A program made the translations under genes and the position numbers. This document shows, piece after piece, positions 11,199 to 64,000 of a DNA stretch of 64,000 bases; position 1 is the first letter of the stretch; every line of letters begins with the position of its first letter. The notes under the pieces are model-generated. The model was given only the letters and a program-made list of their open reading frames with translations. It had not been told where the DNA came from and searched no databases. The stretch comes from Anaerolineales bacterium (GTDB taxonomy: Bacteria; Chloroflexota; Anaerolineae; Anaerolineales; E44-bin32), in contig DAOUDJ010000209.1 of the NCBI GenBank assembly GCA_034430795.1, forward strand, positions 3,762 through 67,761, read 5' to 3'.

Positions 11199-11280
11199 GG
11201 GGAAGTGCTGGAATTGGCAGACAGGCGTGACTTAGGATCACGTGCCCTCGGGCGTGTGGGTTCAAATCCCACCTTCCCCA
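11199..11280 (+). tRNA. tRNA-Leu, anticodon UAG
   Basis: The 82-nt sequence folds into a cloverleaf by hand. Acceptor stem GGGGAAG/CTTCCCC. Anticodon arm CGTGA-CTTAGGA-TCACG. Long variable arm TGCCCTCGGGCGT. T arm GTGGG-TTCAAAT-CCCAC. Discriminator base A. CCA is not encoded. Confidence 0.9.
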
Positions 11281-11373
11281 CTGTGGATCGTTCGATTGCT
11301 TCGGTCTCACGTGGAAGATCGAGCCATCAATTTTCCCCCGAAAATATTCAAAACTGCCAGGAAGGAACGTATA

Positions 11374-54916: not shown

Positions 54917-55837
54917 TTACCGTTGGCGCAAGATATTTAGAGTCGACTCAAAATCCTCTGGAAGTGGTGAATTGAAAGTCGTTGGCTGTTCATTTCCAAG
55001 AAGACGAATAGTTAGCTGACCGGCGTGCAACAGCTGCCGTTCAACAGGCAGCGTGGGTTTGCGACGGCCATAAACCCGATCCCCCACGATCGGACAATCG
55101 ATAAACGACAGATGAACGCGGATCTGGTGGGTACGACCCGTTTCAGGTCGAACTTCAAGAAATGAATGCTCATGGAACTGTTCACGGGTGTGATACGTTG
55201 TAACAGCCTCCCGCCCCCGGCTTTTTGACACAACCGCCATTTTCTGGCGGTGCTTGGAGTCGCGGCCGATAGGCGCATCAATTTTCCCCGATGGGGTCGG
55301 TGGTTTGGAATCCGTGATTGCAAAATAGACTTTCTTCACTTGTCGATCCTGAAATTGTTTCTGGAGCCACTGATGAGCTTCATCGTGCTTTGCGAAGAGG
55401 ATGAGACCAGACGTGTCCTTATCAAGCCGGTGGACTACACCAGGGCGCCCCTCATCACCGATGCCGCGAATATCTGGTGCATGCGCTAGGACTGCATGAA
55501 CTAGTGTTCCAGTTTGGTGACCCACGGAAGGATGGACAACAACACCTGGCTCCTTGTTGATAACCAGGAGATCATGATTTTCATAAACAACGTCGATCGG
55601 GATCGCTTCAGGCTGTAAATCCGTGCGGGTTGGCTCGGGTATCGAGACCTGAATATCCTCGCCGCCATCAAGGCGATAGCCTGTTTTCTTAACAACTTTA
55701 CGATCAACGCTAACCAAAGCGCTGCGAATGAGTTTCTGCACTTGAGAGCGAGAGAGATCCCCTATGTATTCCACAATTACGACGTCCAGCCTACCACCTG
55801 GCTTCGGTGCAAGGAAGCGAATAGTCTGTGCAACCAC
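54917..55837 (-). CDS. rluD: 23S rRNA pseudouridine synthase, RluD family
   Basis: 306 aa. S4 domain at the N-terminus. Contains HRLDKDTSG and GRTHQIRVHL. Confidence 0.9.
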   Translation of the reverse strand: MVAQTIRFLAPKPGGRLDVVIVEYIGDLSRSQVQKLIRSALVSVDRKVVKKTGYRLDGGEDIQVSIPEPTRTDLQPEAIPIDVVYENHDLLVINKEPGVVVHPSVGHQTGTLVHAVLAHAPDIRGIGDEGRPGVVHRLDKDTSGLILFAKHDEAHQWLQKQFQDRQVKKVYFAITDSKPPTPSGKIDAPIGRDSKHRQKMAVVSKSRGREAVTTYHTREQFHEHSFLEVRPETGRTHQIRVHLSFIDCPIVGDRVYGRRKPTLPVERQLLHAGQLTIRLLGNEQPTTFNSPLPEDFESTLNILRQR

Positions 55838-55842
55838 TGGCT

Positions 55843-56385
55843 TTATCCCGATTGACCTTCGAGGTTCCGACTCCCCTTCTCTTCGACGGGATCAGCCTCG
55901 TCTCGTTTCTTATTTCGCCGTTCCTCGACCCACATTGCACCCACAAGAAGCGCTGCACCAATGGATATACAGGAATCAGCCACATTGAAGACCGCAAAAC
56001 TGCCCAAAGAAACGAAGTCTGTTACCGCGCCATGATACAACCTGCTGAGCAGGTTGCCTGTCGCCCCGCCCAACTGGAGCCCTAGTGCGATGCGGGATGC
56101 GACTTGCTCGCGAGGGATCTGGGGGAAGTAATACAGGATGGCGCCAATTACAAGAACTGCAATCACAGTGAAAATCACACCACCGGAGGGGAAGATCCCA
56201 AAAGCTGCTCCTGTATTATTCCAATGGACGATGCGCGCATACGGTCGAAGCCAGTCAAATGGAACCCAGGATTCGCCGACCGCCAGGTTTGTTCTTACAA
56301 GGTATTTAGTCCACTGATCCAAGGCGACGATGACGCCGGCGAGACAGATCAGGAATCCATAATCCCGCAACAATGATCGCTTCAC
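55843..56385 (-). CDS. lspA: lipoprotein signal peptidase II
   Basis: 180 aa. Contains NTGAAFG and FAVFNVADSCISIG. The ileS-lspA-rluD order is conserved. Confidence 0.9.
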   Translation of the reverse strand: MKRSLLRDYGFLICLAGVIVALDQWTKYLVRTNLAVGESWVPFDWLRPYARIVHWNNTGAAFGIFPSGGVIFTVIAVLVIGAILYYFPQIPREQVASRIALGLQLGGATGNLLSRLYHGAVTDFVSLGSFAVFNVADSCISIGAALLVGAMWVEERRNKKRDEADPVEEKGSRNLEGQSG

Positions 56386-56454
56386 TTCAGGTTGTAACCT
56401 CCTTCATTAGACGGACTTGATTGTACCGTAATGCCCCATCAAGTGGGATTCATG

Positions 56455-56492
56455 AATCGGGTTTCCCGGAGGGTATCCTGGGAAACCCGATT
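56455..56492 (-). other. perfect 13-bp stem-loop in the ileS-lspA spacer
   Basis: aatcgggtttccc-(12 nt)-gggaaacccgatt. No U tract follows on either strand. Confidence 0.5.
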
Positions 56493-56531
56493 GCTCTCAT
56501 GCACCTGCGAGAGATTCTCTCCTAGTAAGAA

Positions 56532-59500
56532 TTAACCTTCGACTTTACGTAGAGCGATCCGTAACGATTCTCCGTCGAAATGATGCTCGGTCGTGATCAC
56601 GCCCTGCGGGTTTGCCCTCGACTGCATACTCTCAGCGATGACTTCTCCTTGAATATAGACGCGGTGCACATCGATGGCCTGAGCAAGCTTATCACTTGCA
56701 GTATATTGCACCTCGATGCCATCATCCACCTGAAGATTCGCCTGCCTGCGCAAGTCTTGCACGCGGCGCACAAACTCTCGCGCCAACCCTTCCAGGACCA
56801 ACTCTTCTGTCAGCTCTGTAACCAACGCCGCTACATAGGGTCCATCCGCAACAGCGGAAAAACCCTCGTGAGCTTCGATGCGTAGTTCCACTTCATCCGC
56901 CGTCAACTGGATGGCTTGATCTTCGATTTTTACCTCGATCGGTTTCCCTGCCAGCAGAGCAGACGCACTTTGAGATGGATCAAGCTTCCCAACAGCGTCA
57001 CGGATCGCGGGGAAGAGCGAACCATATTTCTGCCCTAACTGCTTTGGCAGCGCCTTGAGTTGGTACTCGACTGCTTCTGCAGCGGCGTCGAGCAAGCGTA
57101 CTTTTTTAACATTTAATTCATCTCGGATCAGCGCATCGAAACGATTGACAATAGCACGCTCCTCTGAACCTGAGACTGCGAAAACAACTTCGGATAGAGG
57201 TTGCCTCAGCTTCCTGTTAGCTTTGTTCCGCGCTGCATGCCCCATGGAGATGAGCATTTGAACGAATTTCATCTCCTTCAATAAATCCTCATCCACCTCA
57301 GCTGGATCCACCTCCGGCCAAGGGCGATGGTGGACACTCTCAAGCGCGTCATCATCGATGCTCCGTACGAGGTTTTGGTACATCGTCTCCACAACAAAGG
57401 GCGTGAAAGGAGCTAGAACGTGGGTCAAGGTCAGCAGCGCTTGATAGAGCGCAGTATAGGCTGCATGTTTATCCGCATCCGAGGCTTCATCCACACCGGT
57501 TTTCGCCCAGAACCGGCGCCTACTCCGACGGAGGTACCAGTTGCTCAAGTCATCCAGGAAATTCCCGATCACTTTAGCAGCGCGGTCGGGCTCGAAGGTT
57601 TCAAGAGCATGTGTCACCTGATCGATTGTCTGAAGCGAACGTGAGAGAATCCAACGGTCCATAACACTGAACCGGACATCACCACGGTCGGCCGGTGTCC
57701 ACCCATCGAGATTGGCATAGGTAACGAAGAAGGCATACACATTCCACAGTGGTATCAGGAACTGTCGCCGGGCTTCGGTCGCGGTCTCAAATCCAAAAAG
57801 CAAGTCCTTCTCAGGCCTGTGGTTGCAATAGACCCACCGCATGACATCTACACCCATTGCGTCGGCGGCTTTGTTAAACTCGATCATATTGCCCGAAGAT
57901 TTATGCATCGGTTGCCTATCTTCGGCGAGCAAAGTCGCATAAGTAAACACGTGTTTGAATGGCGACTTCCGCTCGAGAATCGTGCTCAAAGCCAGGAGGC
58001 TATAGAACCAGTTTCGGAACTGTCCCGGGAATGATTCGCTGATTAGATCGGCAGGATACCACTCCGACCAATACTCCTTATCGGTGTTGTAGCGGAGCGT
58101 ACTCATCGCCACAACCCCCGCATCCAACCAGGGATTGCCAACATCCGGGATGCGTTCGATAACCGCGCCACATTCACTGCATTCAATCTTCACAGCATCG
58201 ATGTACGGTCGGTGTGGCGTGTGACCCTCAAAAACGTCCCAGCCCTCAACCGCTCTCGCTTCGAGTTCCTCGCGACTTCCAATCACTTCGAAATGCCCGC
58301 AGGATTCGCACTCCCAGATTGGCAGTGCCAGCCCGTAATAGCGCTTCTTCGAGAGCATCCAGTTATGCATATTCCGCAGCCAATCGAGCTCACGCTCCAG
58401 TCCGAAGGAGGGATGCCAAGTTGTTTCTTCTTTCACGACCTCCATAATCTGATAACGCAGGTTGTTTAACTTCTCCTCTTCTGTGACCTGCTCGTAGGGT
58501 TTGTCTAGTTGTTCGCCCATGTTGATGAACCATTCATCCACAAGATGGAATACAAGCTCTTCCCCGCAACGCCAACAAACCGGGTAGCGATGGATATAAT
58601 CCTCGATATTGTAAGTCAAGCTCTTTTCAGTCAGATTTTCGAATATTGGCTGAGCAACTTTCTGGACATTCATCCCCGACAGCCAGCCAAACCCATCGAG
58701 GAAAAGACCGTCGTTGTCTAGCGGTGCAATAACCGGCAGGCCATGTTCCTTGCTCAACTGGAAATCCTCGGCACCACAGCCAGGCGCGATGTGTACGATT
58801 CCAGTCCCCTCGTCTTCGCCCACTTCTTCCCATAGGATCACGCGATGCGCTTCAGGACTTCCCTGTTCTTTTTGAACGGGCAGCTCATCAAAAGGACCAT
58901 CATAAGTCCAACCTTCCATTTCTTTGCCTTTAAGCTCCGCTTCAACTTCGTAGGAACCCTTCAATATATGCAATGTCCCCCTGCTCAGATAGAAAAACTC
59001 ATCCCCCTGACGGACCTTGACATAATCCAAGTCGGGACCAACGGCGGCAGCGACGTTGCTCGTGAGCGTCCATGGCGTGGTCGTCCAAATGAGCAAGCTC
59101 TCACGTTCTCGATCGCGGAGCGGAAAGCGCAACGTGATACTCGGGTGGGTGATTTCCTTGTACCCCTCGGTCACAATCTCATGCTGGCTTAAGCCCGTAC
59201 CACAACGCACACACCACGGCATAACATCACGCCCTTTGAAAATCCAGCCCCGATCGTAGCAGGACTTGAGCACGGCCCAGATGGTGTAGTTGTTGTCATC
59301 TGAAAAAGTGAAATATGATCCGCCTAGTTCCGGCATGCCTAAGCGGCCCACGATGGATTCAACGCTGCCCGTTACCGGTCCGTGCGGCCCTTCCACTGTG
59401 ATTTGCTGGGATGGATCCTCCGCCATCTTATCTCGCAGAGTCCGCAGCATGTCGGGATCGTTCCAATCCATCCAGAACCCCAGGCGGATGCTCTGCTCTG

Positions 59501-59894
59501 TCTGCACCGCGGAGTATTTCAAGACCTGTTGCTTGCACAAATTGACAAAGCGATCGAGGCCGAATTCTTCAATTTCACGCTTGCTGTTGAAACCCATCTC
59601 CCGCTCGACATTGACCTCAACCCATAAACCTTGGCAATCGAAACCGTTCTGGTATCGCGTTCGAAACCCCTGCATGGCTTTAAAGCGATGGAAGAGATCT
59701 TTATATGTCCGCCCCCAACCATGATGAACTCCCATAGGGTTATTGGCCGTAATCGGACCATCAATGAAGGACCAACGTGGACCGTTTGACCTGAGTGCGA
59801 CGAGTTTTTTGAAAGCCTGAATTTCATCCCAGAACTTTAAGACTTCTTTTTCAAGTGCGATGAAATCTACCTGGTTGTCGACGGATTTAAACAT
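56532..59894 (-). CDS. ileS: isoleucyl-tRNA synthetase (long, type-2-like form)
   Basis: 1120 aa. HIGH variant PMGVHHGWGR, KMSKS variant MHKSSGN, CP1 editing region, and Zn-ribbon-like CxxC pairs. Confidence 0.95.
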   Translation of the reverse strand: MFKSVDNQVDFIALEKEVLKFWDEIQAFKKLVALRSNGPRWSFIDGPITANNPMGVHHGWGRTYKDLFHRFKAMQGFRTRYQNGFDCQGLWVEVNVEREMGFNSKREIEEFGLDRFVNLCKQQVLKYSAVQTEQSIRLGFWMDWNDPDMLRTLRDKMAEDPSQQITVEGPHGPVTGSVESIVGRLGMPELGGSYFTFSDDNNYTIWAVLKSCYDRGWIFKGRDVMPWCVRCGTGLSQHEIVTEGYKEITHPSITLRFPLRDRERESLLIWTTTPWTLTSNVAAAVGPDLDYVKVRQGDEFFYLSRGTLHILKGSYEVEAELKGKEMEGWTYDGPFDELPVQKEQGSPEAHRVILWEEVGEDEGTGIVHIAPGCGAEDFQLSKEHGLPVIAPLDNDGLFLDGFGWLSGMNVQKVAQPIFENLTEKSLTYNIEDYIHRYPVCWRCGEELVFHLVDEWFINMGEQLDKPYEQVTEEEKLNNLRYQIMEVVKEETTWHPSFGLERELDWLRNMHNWMLSKKRYYGLALPIWECESCGHFEVIGSREELEARAVEGWDVFEGHTPHRPYIDAVKIECSECGAVIERIPDVGNPWLDAGVVAMSTLRYNTDKEYWSEWYPADLISESFPGQFRNWFYSLLALSTILERKSPFKHVFTYATLLAEDRQPMHKSSGNMIEFNKAADAMGVDVMRWVYCNHRPEKDLLFGFETATEARRQFLIPLWNVYAFFVTYANLDGWTPADRGDVRFSVMDRWILSRSLQTIDQVTHALETFEPDRAAKVIGNFLDDLSNWYLRRSRRRFWAKTGVDEASDADKHAAYTALYQALLTLTHVLAPFTPFVVETMYQNLVRSIDDDALESVHHRPWPEVDPAEVDEDLLKEMKFVQMLISMGHAARNKANRKLRQPLSEVVFAVSGSEERAIVNRFDALIRDELNVKKVRLLDAAAEAVEYQLKALPKQLGQKYGSLFPAIRDAVGKLDPSQSASALLAGKPIEVKIEDQAIQLTADEVELRIEAHEGFSAVADGPYVAALVTELTEELVLEGLAREFVRRVQDLRRQANLQVDDGIEVQYTASDKLAQAIDVHRVYIQGEVIAESMQSRANPQGVITTEHHFDGESLRIALRKVEG

Positions 59895-59902
59895 CTAACA
59901 CC

Positions 59903-60613
59903 TCACGGTTCAAGCTCAATGACCAAGCGTTTATTGATAGCGCCCTTGCTCTTGTAGTCCACGATGCGGATCTGACCTACTTCCTCAGTGTTGGCAACGT
60001 GGGTCCCGCCGTCGGCTTGGAGATCAAGTCCTTCGATTTCCACCACTCGAACTTCTTGAATCCCAGGAGGCAGGAGATTGATTTTCGTTCGGATCAGGTC
60101 AGGGATCTGGAAGGCTTCATCGCGCGGCAAGATTGCAGTCTTAATGGATCGAGCCGCACTGACCTCTACATTGATTTTCTTTTCGATCTCGACGACGAGT
60201 TCCTTATGCATGGATTCAAACTCAAAATCCATTCGTCCACGTAAGGGTTGCATATTTCCGCCGGTTACGCTTGCACCATAATCTCGCCATATCACCCCGC
60301 ATAGGATGTGCATCGCGGTGTGGACGCGCATCAGCTGGTAGCGTCGCTCCCAATCCACTTCACCCTCCACTTCCGCGCCGGCTTCGGGTGGGTCTCCATC
60401 AATTTCATGCCAGAGCTCACCATCGACCTTCCGAACTCGTTTCACGGACAGGGTTTGGTCCCCCAATTGAAATACACCGAAATCGCAGGGCTGTCCCCCT
60501 CCGCCGGGGTAGAAAGCGGTCCGGTCCAGGGAAATTCCGTGCTCCGAGACACCCATCACCTTTGCAGTGAAGGTCTTCAAGAACGAGTCTTCATGGAACA
60601 GCAATTCCGTCAT
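59903..60613 (-). CDS. alaX: AlaX-M-type alanyl-tRNA editing protein (AlaRS second-additional-domain homolog)
   Basis: 236 aa. Contains FYPGGGGQPCD, the HxxxH motif (VHTAMHILCG) and GGTHV. Its stop lies 8 nt before the ileS start. Confidence 0.85.
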   Translation of the reverse strand: MTELLFHEDSFLKTFTAKVMGVSEHGISLDRTAFYPGGGGQPCDFGVFQLGDQTLSVKRVRKVDGELWHEIDGDPPEAGAEVEGEVDWERRYQLMRVHTAMHILCGVIWRDYGASVTGGNMQPLRGRMDFEFESMHKELVVEIEKKINVEVSAARSIKTAILPRDEAFQIPDLIRTKINLLPPGIQEVRVVEIEGLDLQADGGTHVANTEEVGQIRIVDYKSKGAINKRLVIELEP

Positions 60614-60683
60614 CGTTCATTCCTCTCTTTCCAGGGGTAGAAAGTGACACTTCATTAACCCCATTCAACCCCGTATAAATATT

Positions 60684-60982
60684 AAAAGCTCCCGTCCCAA
60701 ACAGGGACGAGAGCACATTACTCCCGTGGTACCACCCTGATTCCCATCAACAGCGGGCTCTCAGTCAGGTACGACCAACAAAATCAGTGGCTTATACCTG
60801 CGCCTTGGGTAACGGCAGGCGATCCCGGCTTCCTTACTTGCGATGTACTGCGTTCGGGTTGCAGCTCCGGAGGGATTTTCCGACTGTTATCCTGACCCGG
60901 CTCTCACCGTCCCCGGGCTCGCTGACAGGCAGACTCAGACGTACTCGTCTCCATCAAAGCTTTTTTCTTCTATTGAATTTAT
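60684..60982 (-). promoter_or_regulatory. T-box riboswitch leader (probable Ile specifier) controlling alaX-ileS
   Basis: Read on the minus strand. K-turn AGC-UUU-GA-UGGAG pairs with CUCCG-GA-GCU. Specifier loop is ACGAGUA / GAAAAUCC. AG bulge is AGCGA. Distal loop is GGACGGUGAGAG. An F-box-like CCGUUA is present. The T-box sequence AAUCAGGGUGGUACCACGGGAG lies at 60742..60721. The terminator CUCUCGUCCC-UGUU-GGGACGGGAG followed by CUUUU lies at 60713..60684. Confidence 0.88.
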
Positions 60983-60988
60983 GTACGC

Positions 60989-61017
60989 ATTATGCCATAC
61001 GCGCAAACACGGGTCAA
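60989..61017 (-). promoter_or_regulatory. sigma-70 promoter of the T-box/alaX-ileS transcript
   Basis: Minus strand reads TTGACC-(17 nt)-CATAAT. The predicted TSS is near 60982, about 20 nt before the Stem I K-turn. Confidence 0.55.
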
Positions 61018-61367
61018 TGACTCTGCGCTTGCACCGTCTCAAACCGATTCTGATGGACCAGGCATATGATTGAGAACGAGTCGACTAATACCACGGATCT
61101 CATTTGCTATACCATTAGAACCGGAGCGCCAATGTTGATATTCTTCGAGTAACGTTTCAACCCCGGCAAGGAGCGCCTGGTATTCGGATTCATAATTCTT
61201 TCCCATCAAGGATAATAATCGCGCTGGCGAATTAGCCTTCCGCTCCCTTTTTAATAGTCGGAAGGATCCTTGGACAGATTCGGGATAGCTGCAGCTGTTC
61301 CCGTAAAACTTAAGAGATATCCCCTCACCACGAGACTCTTATAGGCACTTCGTTTGTGAGGGTAATT

Positions 61368-62210
61368 TTATTTATTTACTCGGTCTGGATACCAATACTC
61401 AAAAAGAACGCTCAGATTGCGTTGATGAAGCTGCTCGGCCAAGCCGCCGAGTATTATGCGGCTCTTCCCACAAGATTCGATGTCGATCTGGGAAAGGTAG
61501 GCTTTGTAATCTTTCCGTCGGCTCGCCTGCCTGACATGACGCCGGATTACATTCATGTAGGTGAGATTGTCCTCCACTTTAGATGTGACCTCCCCCCGTA
61601 GAAAGGTCTCTCCATGTCCTTGGACAATATTTTCCAGCTTCATCTTTGGGAGACGTTTCATGCTCTCGACCATCGTGTCGAAATCGCCGTCGACGATATA
61701 CGGCAGCGGCATGAGTATGTCACCCGAAAAAAGAACCCGATCCTCCACCAGGAGCACGCCAATACCATCTGGGCTGTGGCCTGGGAGGTGTATCAGCTGG
61801 ATAGACCGCTTTCCAATCTGAAGACTCAAAGCTCCTTTTTCGAAGACCACATTCGGGAGAACGATCTTCAGATTCCGTAATTCTCGATTGGTTCGCTTTG
61901 CTGCCGCCAGGGTACGTTTGCCTTTTGTCTCAAGAAGAGTACGGCAGAGGGAGTGGCTGAGAATCGTTGCGTTTGGAAACCAGCAATTGCCCAATGTATG
62001 GTCGGAGTGATAGTGAGTGTTGATGATATAGCGGACTGGTTTGGATAATCGCCCTTCAAGAAAGTCGCGAATTTCTTTGGTTTCTGCAGGGTAAGCGAGC
62101 GTATCAATGAGAATGGACCAATCTTGGCCAACAATGGCCCCTGCATTCACCTGCGCATAAAGTTGGCTGGTGAATACGTATACATCCTCGGCTACCCGCT
62201 CTCTAATCAT
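61368..62210 (-). CDS. MBL-fold metallo-hydrolase
   Basis: 280 aa. HxHxDH motif (INTHYHSDHTLGN), plus later His and Asp ligands (HLPGHSPDG, FSGD, QGHG). Confidence 0.85.
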   Translation of the reverse strand: MIRERVAEDVYVFTSQLYAQVNAGAIVGQDWSILIDTLAYPAETKEIRDFLEGRLSKPVRYIINTHYHSDHTLGNCWFPNATILSHSLCRTLLETKGKRTLAAAKRTNRELRNLKIVLPNVVFEKGALSLQIGKRSIQLIHLPGHSPDGIGVLLVEDRVLFSGDILMPLPYIVDGDFDTMVESMKRLPKMKLENIVQGHGETFLRGEVTSKVEDNLTYMNVIRRHVRQASRRKDYKAYLSQIDIESCGKSRIILGGLAEQLHQRNLSVLFEYWYPDRVNK

Positions 62211-62350: not shown

Positions 62351-64000
62351 TTATGTTGAGCCAGTTGTGGGTGTAGGGAAAGGTGTACTTGTTGGGACAG
62401 GGGTGGGTGTTCGCCAGCGCCACCACCATGGAGTCGGCGTTGGCCGCGGTGTCCGCGTAGGCGTCGGGGTCGGTGTTTGGAAGGGGGTTGGCGTGATGAT
62501 GGCTGTGTCGGGGTATAACTCGAGCATCGCTTCCTTCCAATTTCGTTGATCTCGAAACACAAATTCATTGAACCTCGCTCCATGATAGTAGGTTCGCCAA
62601 TTTGTCAGTGCTGGGACGCGCTCGAAGCCGTAATCCGCCGCCAGTTGTGTAAAATCAACATAGAATCCCGCAGGAATATTCCCTTTTATGCTCCCTCCTT
62701 GGTCATAGAATTGAGGGTCCCCGTCATAACGAATCTGGAAATCCCAACTGGGCGTCCGCAGCGGCTCACCTTGAGAACCATCCTGCTCTGCAGTACGAAC
62801 ATAGACTCTCCAGTAGGTCTGAGCCCCAAAATCCTCCCGTACCATCTCGATCCATCCGGCTTGAACCGCGGCTTGGCTGAAAGCGAAAGCCCGTCCAGTG
62901 AAAAGCCAATCATCATGAGACAAGCCAGGTGGAAGCGGATCGTTTATTCCCACGAACGCATGCTCTAACGTGGAAAGAAAATCCCACCCAAGATCGATTG
63001 TTACCCGCGCACGCAGAGCGTTGAAGGCCTCATCGACTGCGTCAGAGAGAGATGCATTAGGCGCGGTCACCCCCGGAAGCAGAGCGAGCGATAGACGGCC
63101 GAAAGTTGCATCCTGAGAAGTTAGTTCGATCACGTATAGCGGGAGTGTCGCCGTTTCATCTTCACCAAATGGATACGCCGCCGCAGGCAGACCCTCCGCC
63201 GTCCAAAAAAGATCCTCGATAGAAAGATGGATTGGGAGTCCCGGCGGATGCCCTCCATTATAGGAATAGGTGACCAGCCGCCGTTCAAAGGGATCCGCAA
63301 GAATGGCAATCAGCGCCTTTCCATCGGGTGACCAGCGCACACTGTGTCCTTGACCATTGGGAGATGATGGAAGATCGCTTTCAATTTCTTTGACCAAGAT
63401 CTCCTCAAAACCCCTTCTATTGATCGAGTAGGCCAACAGGCTCCCATCGGGACTAAAAGCAGGATCGCTCTCACCTAACTCGATGGTTTGAGTTAGATTA
63501 ATGAAGCGCTCGTCCGGTTGATCCAATTTCGCGACGAACACATCCGGCGAGCCATCACGATCGGAAATGAAGGCGATGCGTCGGCCGCCCGGATCCCAAT
63601 CCGGAGAATTATCGTTCGCAGGATGATTTGTTAACTGGATCACATCTTCATCATCCATTACCGGCAAGATGTAAATGTCAAAATCACCATCGTAATTCGC
63701 TTCGTAGGCGATCCATCGACCATCCGGTGACCAGGTTGGATTGCCTTCGAACCCCGGGGTTTCAGTCAACTGCCGTAGATTCCCGGAGTTGAGATCCAGC
63801 AAATAGAGATCCCAGTAGAGTCCGCGGTTTGATGTGAAAGCAAGCATCCCCTCATCCGCATTGAACGCTGGATTCCGATCGTCCCATTCCCCAAATGTGA
63901 TCTGGATTGGTTCAGCATCTCCAATTACGTATGCCCAAATACTGCTGCGCGCCTGGGTTCGGGCTGAGAAAAAGATCGTGCCCTTTGAGGCAATTTGCGT
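62351..64000 (-). CDS. TolB-like beta-propeller protein with uncharacterised C-domain and Pro/Thr-rich tail (5' end outside window)
   Basis: The frame stays open upstream of the track's Met (63847) to the window edge (...PAFNADEGMLAFTSNRG). It carries repeated propeller motifs (PTWSPDGRWIAYE, PDWDPGGRRIAFISDRDG, PAFSPDGSLLAYS, VRWSPDGKALIA). The C-terminal tail reads TPTPFQTPTPTPTRTPRPTPTPWWWRWRTPTPVPTSTPFPTPTTGST. Confidence 0.75.
   Translation of the reverse strand, partial: TQIASKGTIFFSARTQARSSIWAYVIGDAEPIQITFGEWDDRNPAFNADEGMLAFTSNRGLYWDLYLLDLNSGNLRQLTETPGFEGNPTWSPDGRWIAYEANYDGDFDIYILPVMDDEDVIQLTNHPANDNSPDWDPGGRRIAFISDRDGSPDVFVAKLDQPDERFINLTQTIELGESDPAFSPDGSLLAYSINRRGFEEILVKEIESDLPSSPNGQGHSVRWSPDGKALIAILADPFERRLVTYSYNGGHPPGLPIHLSIEDLFWTAEGLPAAAYPFGEDETATLPLYVIELTSQDATFGRLSLALLPGVTAPNASLSDAVDEAFNALRARVTIDLGWDFLSTLEHAFVGINDPLPPGLSHDDWLFTGRAFAFSQAAVQAGWIEMVREDFGAQTYWRVYVRTAEQDGSQGEPLRTPSWDFQIRYDGDPQFYDQGGSIKGNIPAGFYVDFTQLAADYGFERVPALTNWRTYYHGARFNEFVFRDQRNWKEAMLELYPDTAIITPTPFQTPTPTPTRTPRPTPTPWWWRWRTPTPVPTSTPFPTPTTGST

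Follow-up and report, generated by a model that had tools for sequence, protein, structure and literature searches.

The 64,000-nucleotide (nt) stretch of DNA analyzed here (the window) lies on contig DAOUDJ010000209.1 of an Anaerolineales bacterium of the phylum Chloroflexota, and its minus strand carries a T-box riboswitch leader (60700..60966), an alaX-like gene for a 236-amino acid (aa) protein of AlaX-M architecture (59903..60613), and ileS (56532..59894), whose 1120-aa product is assigned to the type-2 isoleucyl-tRNA synthetases (IleRS) by TIGR00392 and Pfam. Window positions below refer to this strand unless stated otherwise. That the alaX-like gene stands first behind the leader and that ileS follows 8 nt later had already been noticed in a preliminary description made from the letters alone, and both statements are borne out by the open reading frames and by the sequence of the junction. 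The specifier loop of the leader holds an isoleucine codon, and on the evidence of the related loci we surveyed, the class Anaerolineae has long had the arrangement T-box(Ile) - alaX - ileS.

The preliminary description had listed a promoter, K-turn, specifier loop, AG bulge, distal loop, F-box, T-box sequence and terminator for this leader, and cmscan and the sequence itself place all of them at the coordinates given there. The covariance model supports the same assignment, with a full-length match of 60966..60700 to Rfam family RF00230 (model positions 1-219) at 109.4 bits (E 2.9e-23), above the gathering score of 93 bits. This match takes in Stem I, Stem II, Stem IIA/B with the F-box, Stem III and the antiterminator. 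In the cmscan alignment the base of Stem I forms the K-turn (GCUUUGAUGGAG ... CUCCGGAGC), the S-turn reads AGUA/GAA, the 8 nt on the 3′ side of the specifier loop read GAA-A-AUC-C, the AG bulge is AGCGA, the distal loop is GGACGGUGAGAG and the F-box is CCGUUA. Upstream of the leader is a sigma-70-type promoter-like site (60989..61017) made up of TTGACC, a 17-nt spacer and a TG-extended CATAAT, which a consensus scan returned as the sole promoter-like site on the minus strand across 55500..61500.

Structural support was computed on an alignment of 72 related leaders, to which all leader counts below refer. Across this alignment 90% of the cells in the Rfam structure are paired and 35 of the 47 pairs have changed on both sides, with compensatory changes present in the Stem I helices; none of 500 shuffles reached the observed pairing values, and slid controls were also far off. 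RF00230 scores in 15 related loci ranged from 93.6 to 113.2 bits. Folded as a single sequence, the window leader gives a minimum free energy with a z of -0.38, which is no signal in either direction, as one expects of a switch with alternative folds. In five relatives (L037, L040, L048, L084 and L087) Stem II is enlarged: heptads resembling CGGTAAT/CAGTAAT stand in tandem and fold into a long imperfect hairpin, seen in columns about 270-400 of alignment A2 and absent from the window leader.

The T-box core AGGGUGGUACC (60728..60738), identified both in the sequence and by cmscan, contains UGGU at 60734..60731, which would pair with a tRNA 3′ end of NCCA in which N is A73. Following the Rfam consensus structure, the antiterminator (60703..60738) is built from AGGG, a 7-nt bulge UGGUACC and ACGGG, closed by CUCGU and CCCU on the 3′ side, and its helices 10 and 11 are 98-100% paired among the leaders. 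The intrinsic terminator (60677..60714) consists of an 11-bp stem GCUCUCGUCCC/GGGACGGGAGC with the loop UGUUU, followed by UUUUAAUAUUU; the stem proper (60714..60688) is G+C-rich and the U-run TTTTAATATTT comes directly after it. Its pairing across relatives is 95.7%, with six of the 11 pairs changed on both sides. When the 5′ arm of the terminator (60714..60704) is laid against the 3′ strand of the antiterminator (60711..60703), bases 60711..60704 are common to both, and the two structures are therefore mutually exclusive. The switch itself is ordinary, an Ile T-box predicted to act by transcription antitermination.

For the identity of the sensed tRNA, the preliminary description had named AUC as the best specifier candidate and left an AAU register open. 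AUC (60874..60876) sits in the canonical codon slot of the cmscan alignment and is kept in 72 of 72 related leaders, while the bases on either side of it both vary. A stands before AUC in 65 leaders, U in four and G in three, so the AAU register is now excluded because this variation would turn it into GAU or UAU. T-boxes usually have a conserved purine directly 3′ of the specifier; here the base in that place is C, as the preliminary description had pointed out for the window, and it is C in 67 of the related leaders and A in the other five. The missing purine would be one reason to look for the specifier in a different register, AAU (Asn) or UCC/UCA (Ser), and the Ser reading could also draw on UCC and its variant UCA both being Ser codons and on Ser-tRNA-Ala being an AlaX substrate. 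We regard any other register as exceedingly improbable, however: in the covariance-model alignment it is AUC that takes the canonical place within the 8-nt segment, AAU is destroyed by the A/U/G variation before it, and the operon includes ileS. The Ser register in particular is very unlikely because it would require different tRNA-Ser isoacceptors for UCC and UCA and a G73 discriminator. Bacterial tRNA-Ile has A73 as its discriminator whereas tRNA-Ser and tRNA-Asn have G73, and the UGGU of the T-box core, likewise invariant (72/72), fits the A73 of tRNA-Ile. Judged by its sequence, the leader is a canonical transcriptional T-box riboswitch for tRNA-Ile(GAU), and we infer that tRNA-Ile brings about the antitermination.

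Placing an alaX gene under the control of uncharged tRNA-Ile had been called an unexpected coupling, and comparison with relatives established that the gene order is real and conserved across Anaerolineae. Using AlaX as the anchor and one genome per species, we collected 80 loci, all from Chloroflexota and with AlaX identities of 65-95% (cited by their L numbers), and searched them for leaders with an iterated nhmmer profile that started from the leader of the window. Metagenome-assembled genomes of Anaerolineales supply the AlaX homologues closest to that of the window. Exactly one T-box-like leader was found in 71 of the 80 loci, always upstream of alaX, and in most of them it ends 8-152 nt before alaX, the distance growing to a few hundred nt where a gene has been inserted. 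On the same strand downstream, ileS is present in 67 of the 80 loci, with a gap of at most 150 nt in 34 and of 0.2-4 kb in 33. Among the T-box loci whose sequence continues downstream for 3.5 kb or more, ileS follows on the same strand in 56 of 56, either adjacent or 0.2-2.6 kb away, and the six T-box loci that lack ileS all have incomplete downstream sequence.

As a check that does not depend on AlaX, five loci were sampled through IleRS homologues, and all five agree in reading T-box(AUC) - (GNAT) - alaX - (0-2 genes) - ileS - dksA-like - lspA - rluD. The order ileS-(dksA-like)-lspA-rluD also recurs among the relatives. The T-box is absent from nine AlaX-anchored loci and from L085; at the gathering score Rfam found no T-box in the 10 alaX loci negative by nhmmer, nor was there one at E ≤ 1 before the ileS of L077. 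Two of the T-box-less loci (L038 and L077) have ileS about 4 kb downstream of alaX, six have no ileS in range, and L059 and L064 are too short on the downstream side. One locus of the survey (L003, JAIWHF010000014.1) is labelled as a Methanosarcinales archaeon metagenome-assembled genome and holds a bacterial T-box - alaX - ileS - lspA - rluD operon with proteins 84-92% identical to those of the window, probably as a result of bin contamination.

In the window, the alaX-like gene has a Shine-Dalgarno-like GAGAGGA 7 nt ahead of its ATG, and its junction with ileS reads TGA-GGTGTTAG-ATG, where GAGGTG overlaps the alaX stop; such a junction fits translational coupling, which is probably how ileS is read. 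From the leader to the end of ileS, a consensus scan of the minus strand returned neither promoter-like sites nor strong terminator-like ones, and we infer that alaX and ileS are co-transcribed. It could be argued that the switch controls only alaX in the window and that ileS has a promoter of its own, given that a negative consensus scan proves little, that promoters of Chloroflexota may not follow the consensus, and that a gene on the opposite strand splits alaX from ileS in one relative (L044). We find this very unlikely, as the gap is just 8 nt with a Shine-Dalgarno-like sequence overlapping the alaX stop, neither a promoter-like site nor a terminator separates the two genes, an essential synthetase is the usual target of a T-box, and no further regulator was detected ahead of ileS. 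Among the relatives in which ileS lies 0.5-2.6 kb from alaX, too, neither nhmmer nor Rfam at the gathering threshold returned a second T-box or another Rfam element before ileS, and Rfam gave a single T-box for each locus.

The first gene of the operon encodes a protein in which Pfam recognizes the C-terminal part of tRNA-synt_2c (residues 13-90) and tRNA_SAD (188-230), that is, the N-terminal beta-barrel and editing domain of AlaX-M with no C-Ala domain. It aligns end to end with the NCBIfam AlaXM model NF040865 (protein 2-235 on model 1-234), and alignments to structures in the PDB cover residues 516-734 of alanyl-tRNA synthetase (AlaRS) as well as AlaX-M. On this homology we treat it as a putative AlaX. 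Of the two zinc motifs, HxxxH is present as HTAMH, and the second reads QADGGTH as opposed to the QACGGTH of the solved AlaRS and AlaX-M structures, with Asp (D201) in place of the Cys of CxGxH. The protein thus lacks the complete pair of HxxxH and CxGxH, and every one of the 80 loci shares the second motif DGGTH with the window. Both HXXXH and CXGXH have been described as universally conserved in the AlaRS-editing family, and the Cys has been tied to peroxide sensitivity (PMC12003907).

We examined whether this change from Cys to Asp could mark a new function specific to the ileS context and rejected the idea. Among 1.8 billion cluster representatives searched, 90 AlaX-M-like proteins had a readable motif, and in these the first residue of the second zinc motif is Asp in 69, Cys in 19 and Gly in two, and one sequence cluster mixes the Asp and Cys forms. 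Proteins of the Asp type are also annotated as AlaX-M in Heimdall- and Hodarchaeales archaea, where ileS is not adjacent. Because it is widespread, including in Asgard archaea, the Asp is a variant at the level of the family that does not single out the ileS context, and its occurrence in Asgard copies away from ileS argues that the protein would be an ordinary AlaX-M orthologue with no Ile-specific invention. We also rejected the idea that alaX and ileS had been transferred together from archaea, as two Asgard loci have alaX with no ileS nearby.

The IleRS of the window scores 666.2 bits against TIGR00392 (cutoff 621.4), with the match in two stretches, has the DUF5915 C-terminal domain, and keeps its CP1 editing motifs intact (WTTTPWT and GTGIVHIAPGCGAED), so that equivalog score, editing motifs and domain content all agree with a type-2 enzyme. 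Its HIGH motif reads HHGW and its KMSKS motif reads PMHKS. Because its own CP1 motifs are kept, this IleRS has no obvious need for an external editor. In six AlaX-anchored loci (L028, L030, L041, L055, L057 and L065) the same slot is taken by a canonical IleRS2 of about 1057 aa that is 37% identical to the window IleRS and has an HHVL-type HIGH motif, with HVGH only in L057. The linkage of T-box, alaX and ileS is common to both IleRS forms.

These features of the two proteins bear on the question of whether tRNA-Ile control reports the true role of AlaX. The DxGxH-type AlaX-M could be a working partner of the isoleucine/IleRS system, recruited to clear mis-acylated tRNA-Ile that is poorly handled by CP1, or else Ser, Gly or other mis-acylations that rise when isoleucine is scarce; its target would be tRNA-Ile itself, or several tRNAs if its specificity is relaxed. 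A partnership of this kind would suit the contiguity of T-box and alaX, which has been kept over deep divergence, with two IleRS forms and through many insertions, and it would also suit the atypical zinc motif and the two T-box-less loci in which alaX still lies some 4 kb ahead of ileS. Relaxed tRNA specificity is known for some AlaX proteins (PMC11260482; PMC11295145), and there is a precedent in CtdA, where the context of a guanidine riboswitch revealed the substrate of a stand-alone editor (PMC10018355). We nonetheless think recruitment quite unlikely. The Asp variant occurs in 69 of the 90 representatives and in Asgard copies away from ileS, the editing motifs of IleRS are intact, and about 10% of the loci have alaX with the same motif but without T-box or ileS. 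AlaX-M is moreover reported to be selective for tRNA-Ala, AlaXp-M hydrolyzing Ser- and Gly-tRNA-Ala through recognition of G3:U70 (PMC11295145), and we found no sequence feature pointing to tRNA-Ile.

The distribution of inserted genes speaks to the opposite possibility, that alaX is a neutral passenger. The gene order has survived many insertions and occurs with two IleRS forms; inserted genes follow alaX in 33 loci and lie between the T-box and alaX in about six. A single ancestral insertion of alaX, with the order then held by inertia and co-regulation of no selective value, would be in keeping with T-boxes directly before ileS being common in other phyla and reported for Dehalococcoides (PMC2494555), with an alaX-ileS spacer that tolerates selfish genes (PDDEXK_3, Mrr, SLFN_AlbA_2, Fic), and with an alaX that works without the switch in some lineages. 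On balance we hold neutral hitch-hiking to be unlikely, since none of the sampled T-box loci has lost alaX although AlaX identity falls to 65% and IleRS identity to 37%, and since so few insertions are found between T-box and alaX compared with those after it.

The explanation we favour, and which we believe is probably correct as a whole, is that alaX still encodes a Ser/Gly-tRNA-Ala deacylase that is simply co-induced with IleRS. Transcription would begin at the promoter near 60989, and Stem I of the nascent leader would dock tRNA-Ile through AUC and the distal platform. If the tRNA-Ile is uncharged, its free NCCA end would pair with UGGU and block the 11-bp terminator, allowing the polymerase to read into the operon, whereas with charged tRNA-Ile transcription would end at the U-run near 60680. 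The transcript would encode the AlaX-M-type deacylase, then IleRS (probably by coupled translation), and possibly LspA and RluD. The switch would primarily be a feedback regulator of ileS, as in other phyla, and alaX a stably co-regulated general proofreader of Ser- and Gly-tRNA-Ala, so that proofreading capacity would rise together with IleRS as isoleucine charging drops. The simplest history would have alaX inserted once, between ileS and the leader that ancestrally preceded it.

Several observations weigh against this explanation. The usual purine after the specifier codon is missing, which is a peculiarity of the lineage and leaves the RF00230 score above threshold, and neither the window nor the 60 loci scanned of the 93 fetched contained a tRNA-Ile gene with which to compare A73. 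The AlaX-like protein scores 287.4 bits against NF040865, below the cutoff of 300, and it lacks the Cys called invariant in PMC12003907, so its AlaX activity is an assumption. The operon is read from sequence, and internal promoters may exist despite the consensus scans; in L044 the switch may control alaX and not ileS, given the opposite-strand aminotransferase between them. About 10% of the AlaX-anchored loci have alaX elsewhere with no T-box, and alaX therefore does not require this control. Lastly, the contact between T-box and alaX is tenacious, with insertions falling mostly after alaX and with alaX present in five of five IleRS-anchored loci, which suggests more than passive hitch-hiking.

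The inserted genes deserve a description of their own. Ahead of alaX the rare insertions are either a GNAT gene or an open reading frame of 357 aa, the GNAT acetyltransferase lying between T-box and alaX at L044:5501-6004 and L090:2954-3427. A conserved protein of about 230 aa recurs immediately behind alaX and ahead of ileS in many Anaerolineae (L084:6796-7488, L087:6746-7486, L036:6786-7484, L040:6793-7485 and about 18 more loci) and gave no Pfam or NCBIfam match; its gene is a third recurrent T-box-controlled member and is absent from the clade of the window. The alaX-ileS spacer is an insertion hotspot in L020, L022, L040, L050, L054, L071, L087, L090 and L091, with cargo that is always on the operon strand and includes PD-(D/E)XK_3, Mrr, aspartyl-protease-like, SLFN_AlbA_2 and Fic genes and a NUDIX gene with a methyltransferase. 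The opposite-strand gene of L044 (L044:6717-7841) encodes a class-IV aminotransferase of the branched-chain type. L032, L047 and L049 have minus-strand open reading frames in the gap between alaX and ileS that were judged to be compositional artefacts, the L044 aminotransferase being the only one with a Pfam match.

Downstream of ileS in the window are lspA for signal peptidase II (55843..56385; Pfam Peptidase_A8), a gene for an rluD-like pseudouridine synthase (54917..55837; Pfam S4 and PseudoU_synth_2) that starts 5 nt after lspA, and then a threonine-aldolase-like gene on the same strand. The preliminary description had expected the operon to continue through lspA and rluD, and both genes do follow; the membership of lspA is uncertain because it is preceded by a 146-nt spacer with a 13-bp hairpin. 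This hairpin (56455..56492; AAUCGGGUUUCCC ... GGGAAACCCGAUU) has a 12-nt loop and no U-run, and might serve in RNA processing or stability or act as a weak terminator. Elsewhere in the window there is a gene for a 498-aa PD40/beta-propeller-like protein (62351..63847) with a Pro/Thr-rich tail (TPTPTPTRTPRPTPTPWWWRWRTPTP...), and the only tRNA gene is that of tRNA-Leu(UAG) at 11199..11281 on the plus strand. In some relatives a 6S RNA gene lies 0.5-3 kb upstream of alaX or its T-box (L044:3460-3634, L089:1879-2057, L090:440-617, L091:1557-1722, L093:1425-1590 and, in a locus without T-box, L076:659-841), within a conserved aspS - 6S - MGS - MBL neighbourhood. No 6S RNA match was obtained in the window at the gathering score.

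T-boxes before the genes of isoleucine-tRNA ligases are known in Chloroflexi, including Dehalococcoides (PMC2494555). The leader described here resembles the ileS T-boxes of Firmicutes, Deinococcus and Dehalococcoides in its full set of Stem I, Stem II, Stem IIA/B, Stem III and antiterminator-terminator, in AUC and UGGN, and in having the synthetase gene in its operon. It differs from them in that the gene of an AlaX-family deacylase and not ileS comes first, in the C after the codon, and, in some relatives, in the GNAT gene, the 230-aa protein of no known family and the selfish elements held within the controlled unit. The AlaX-like protein shares its two-domain architecture, its length, HxxxH and GGTH with the Pyrococcus AlaX-M (PDB 2E1B, 9IUW) and with the AlaRS editing domain (2ZZE, 2ZTG); unlike the Pyrococcus AlaX-M it has DxGxH, scores just under the equivalog cutoff, is bacterial, and would be controlled by a T-box(Ile), its activity being predicted by likeness. 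As for the synthetase, DUF5915, TIGR00392 and T-box control are shared with the type-2 IleRS of the eukaryote/archaea-like, mupirocin-tolerant kind, such as the T-box-regulated ileS2 of Bacilli, whereas the window enzyme is a divergent 1120-aa form, with its HHGW-type HIGH motif and only 37% identity to the Anaerolineae form of about 1057 aa.

A parallel to the arrangement as a whole is CtdA, a stand-alone canavanyl-tRNA-Arg deacylase that is often found under guanidine riboswitches (PMC10018355). In both cases a free-standing editor is placed under a riboswitch, and the regulatory context is informative on its role. CtdA differs in having a B3/4 fold, another class of riboswitch, and a ligand that is related to the editing substrate, and here, unlike in CtdA, the sensed tRNA (Ile) is not the presumed substrate tRNA (Ala).

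The zinc motif has a bearing beyond this operon, in that DxGxH replaces the 'invariant' CxGxH in a large share of AlaX-M relatives, which touches on the proposed link between the Cys and oxidative stress (PMC12003907). A conserved control of an AlaX-family gene by tRNA-Ile appears to be unreported, the RNA belonging to a known family and the content of the regulon being new; our literature search returned nothing linking AlaX to a T-box, ileS or Chloroflexi, though an earlier mention in T-box surveys is possible. A T-box regulon normally serves as a guide to function, with the sensed tRNA naming the pathway, and annotation pipelines such as TBDB pick the specifier by the first downstream gene. 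On one reading of our results, T-box regulons can stably hold genes that are unrelated to the sensed amino acid, and pipelines like TBDB would need to be used with caution. On the other reading, AlaX-M would have an undescribed role tied to isoleucine charging; if that recruitment is true, class I IleRS systems would gain their first associated trans-editing factor, which would also be the first one controlled by a T-box.

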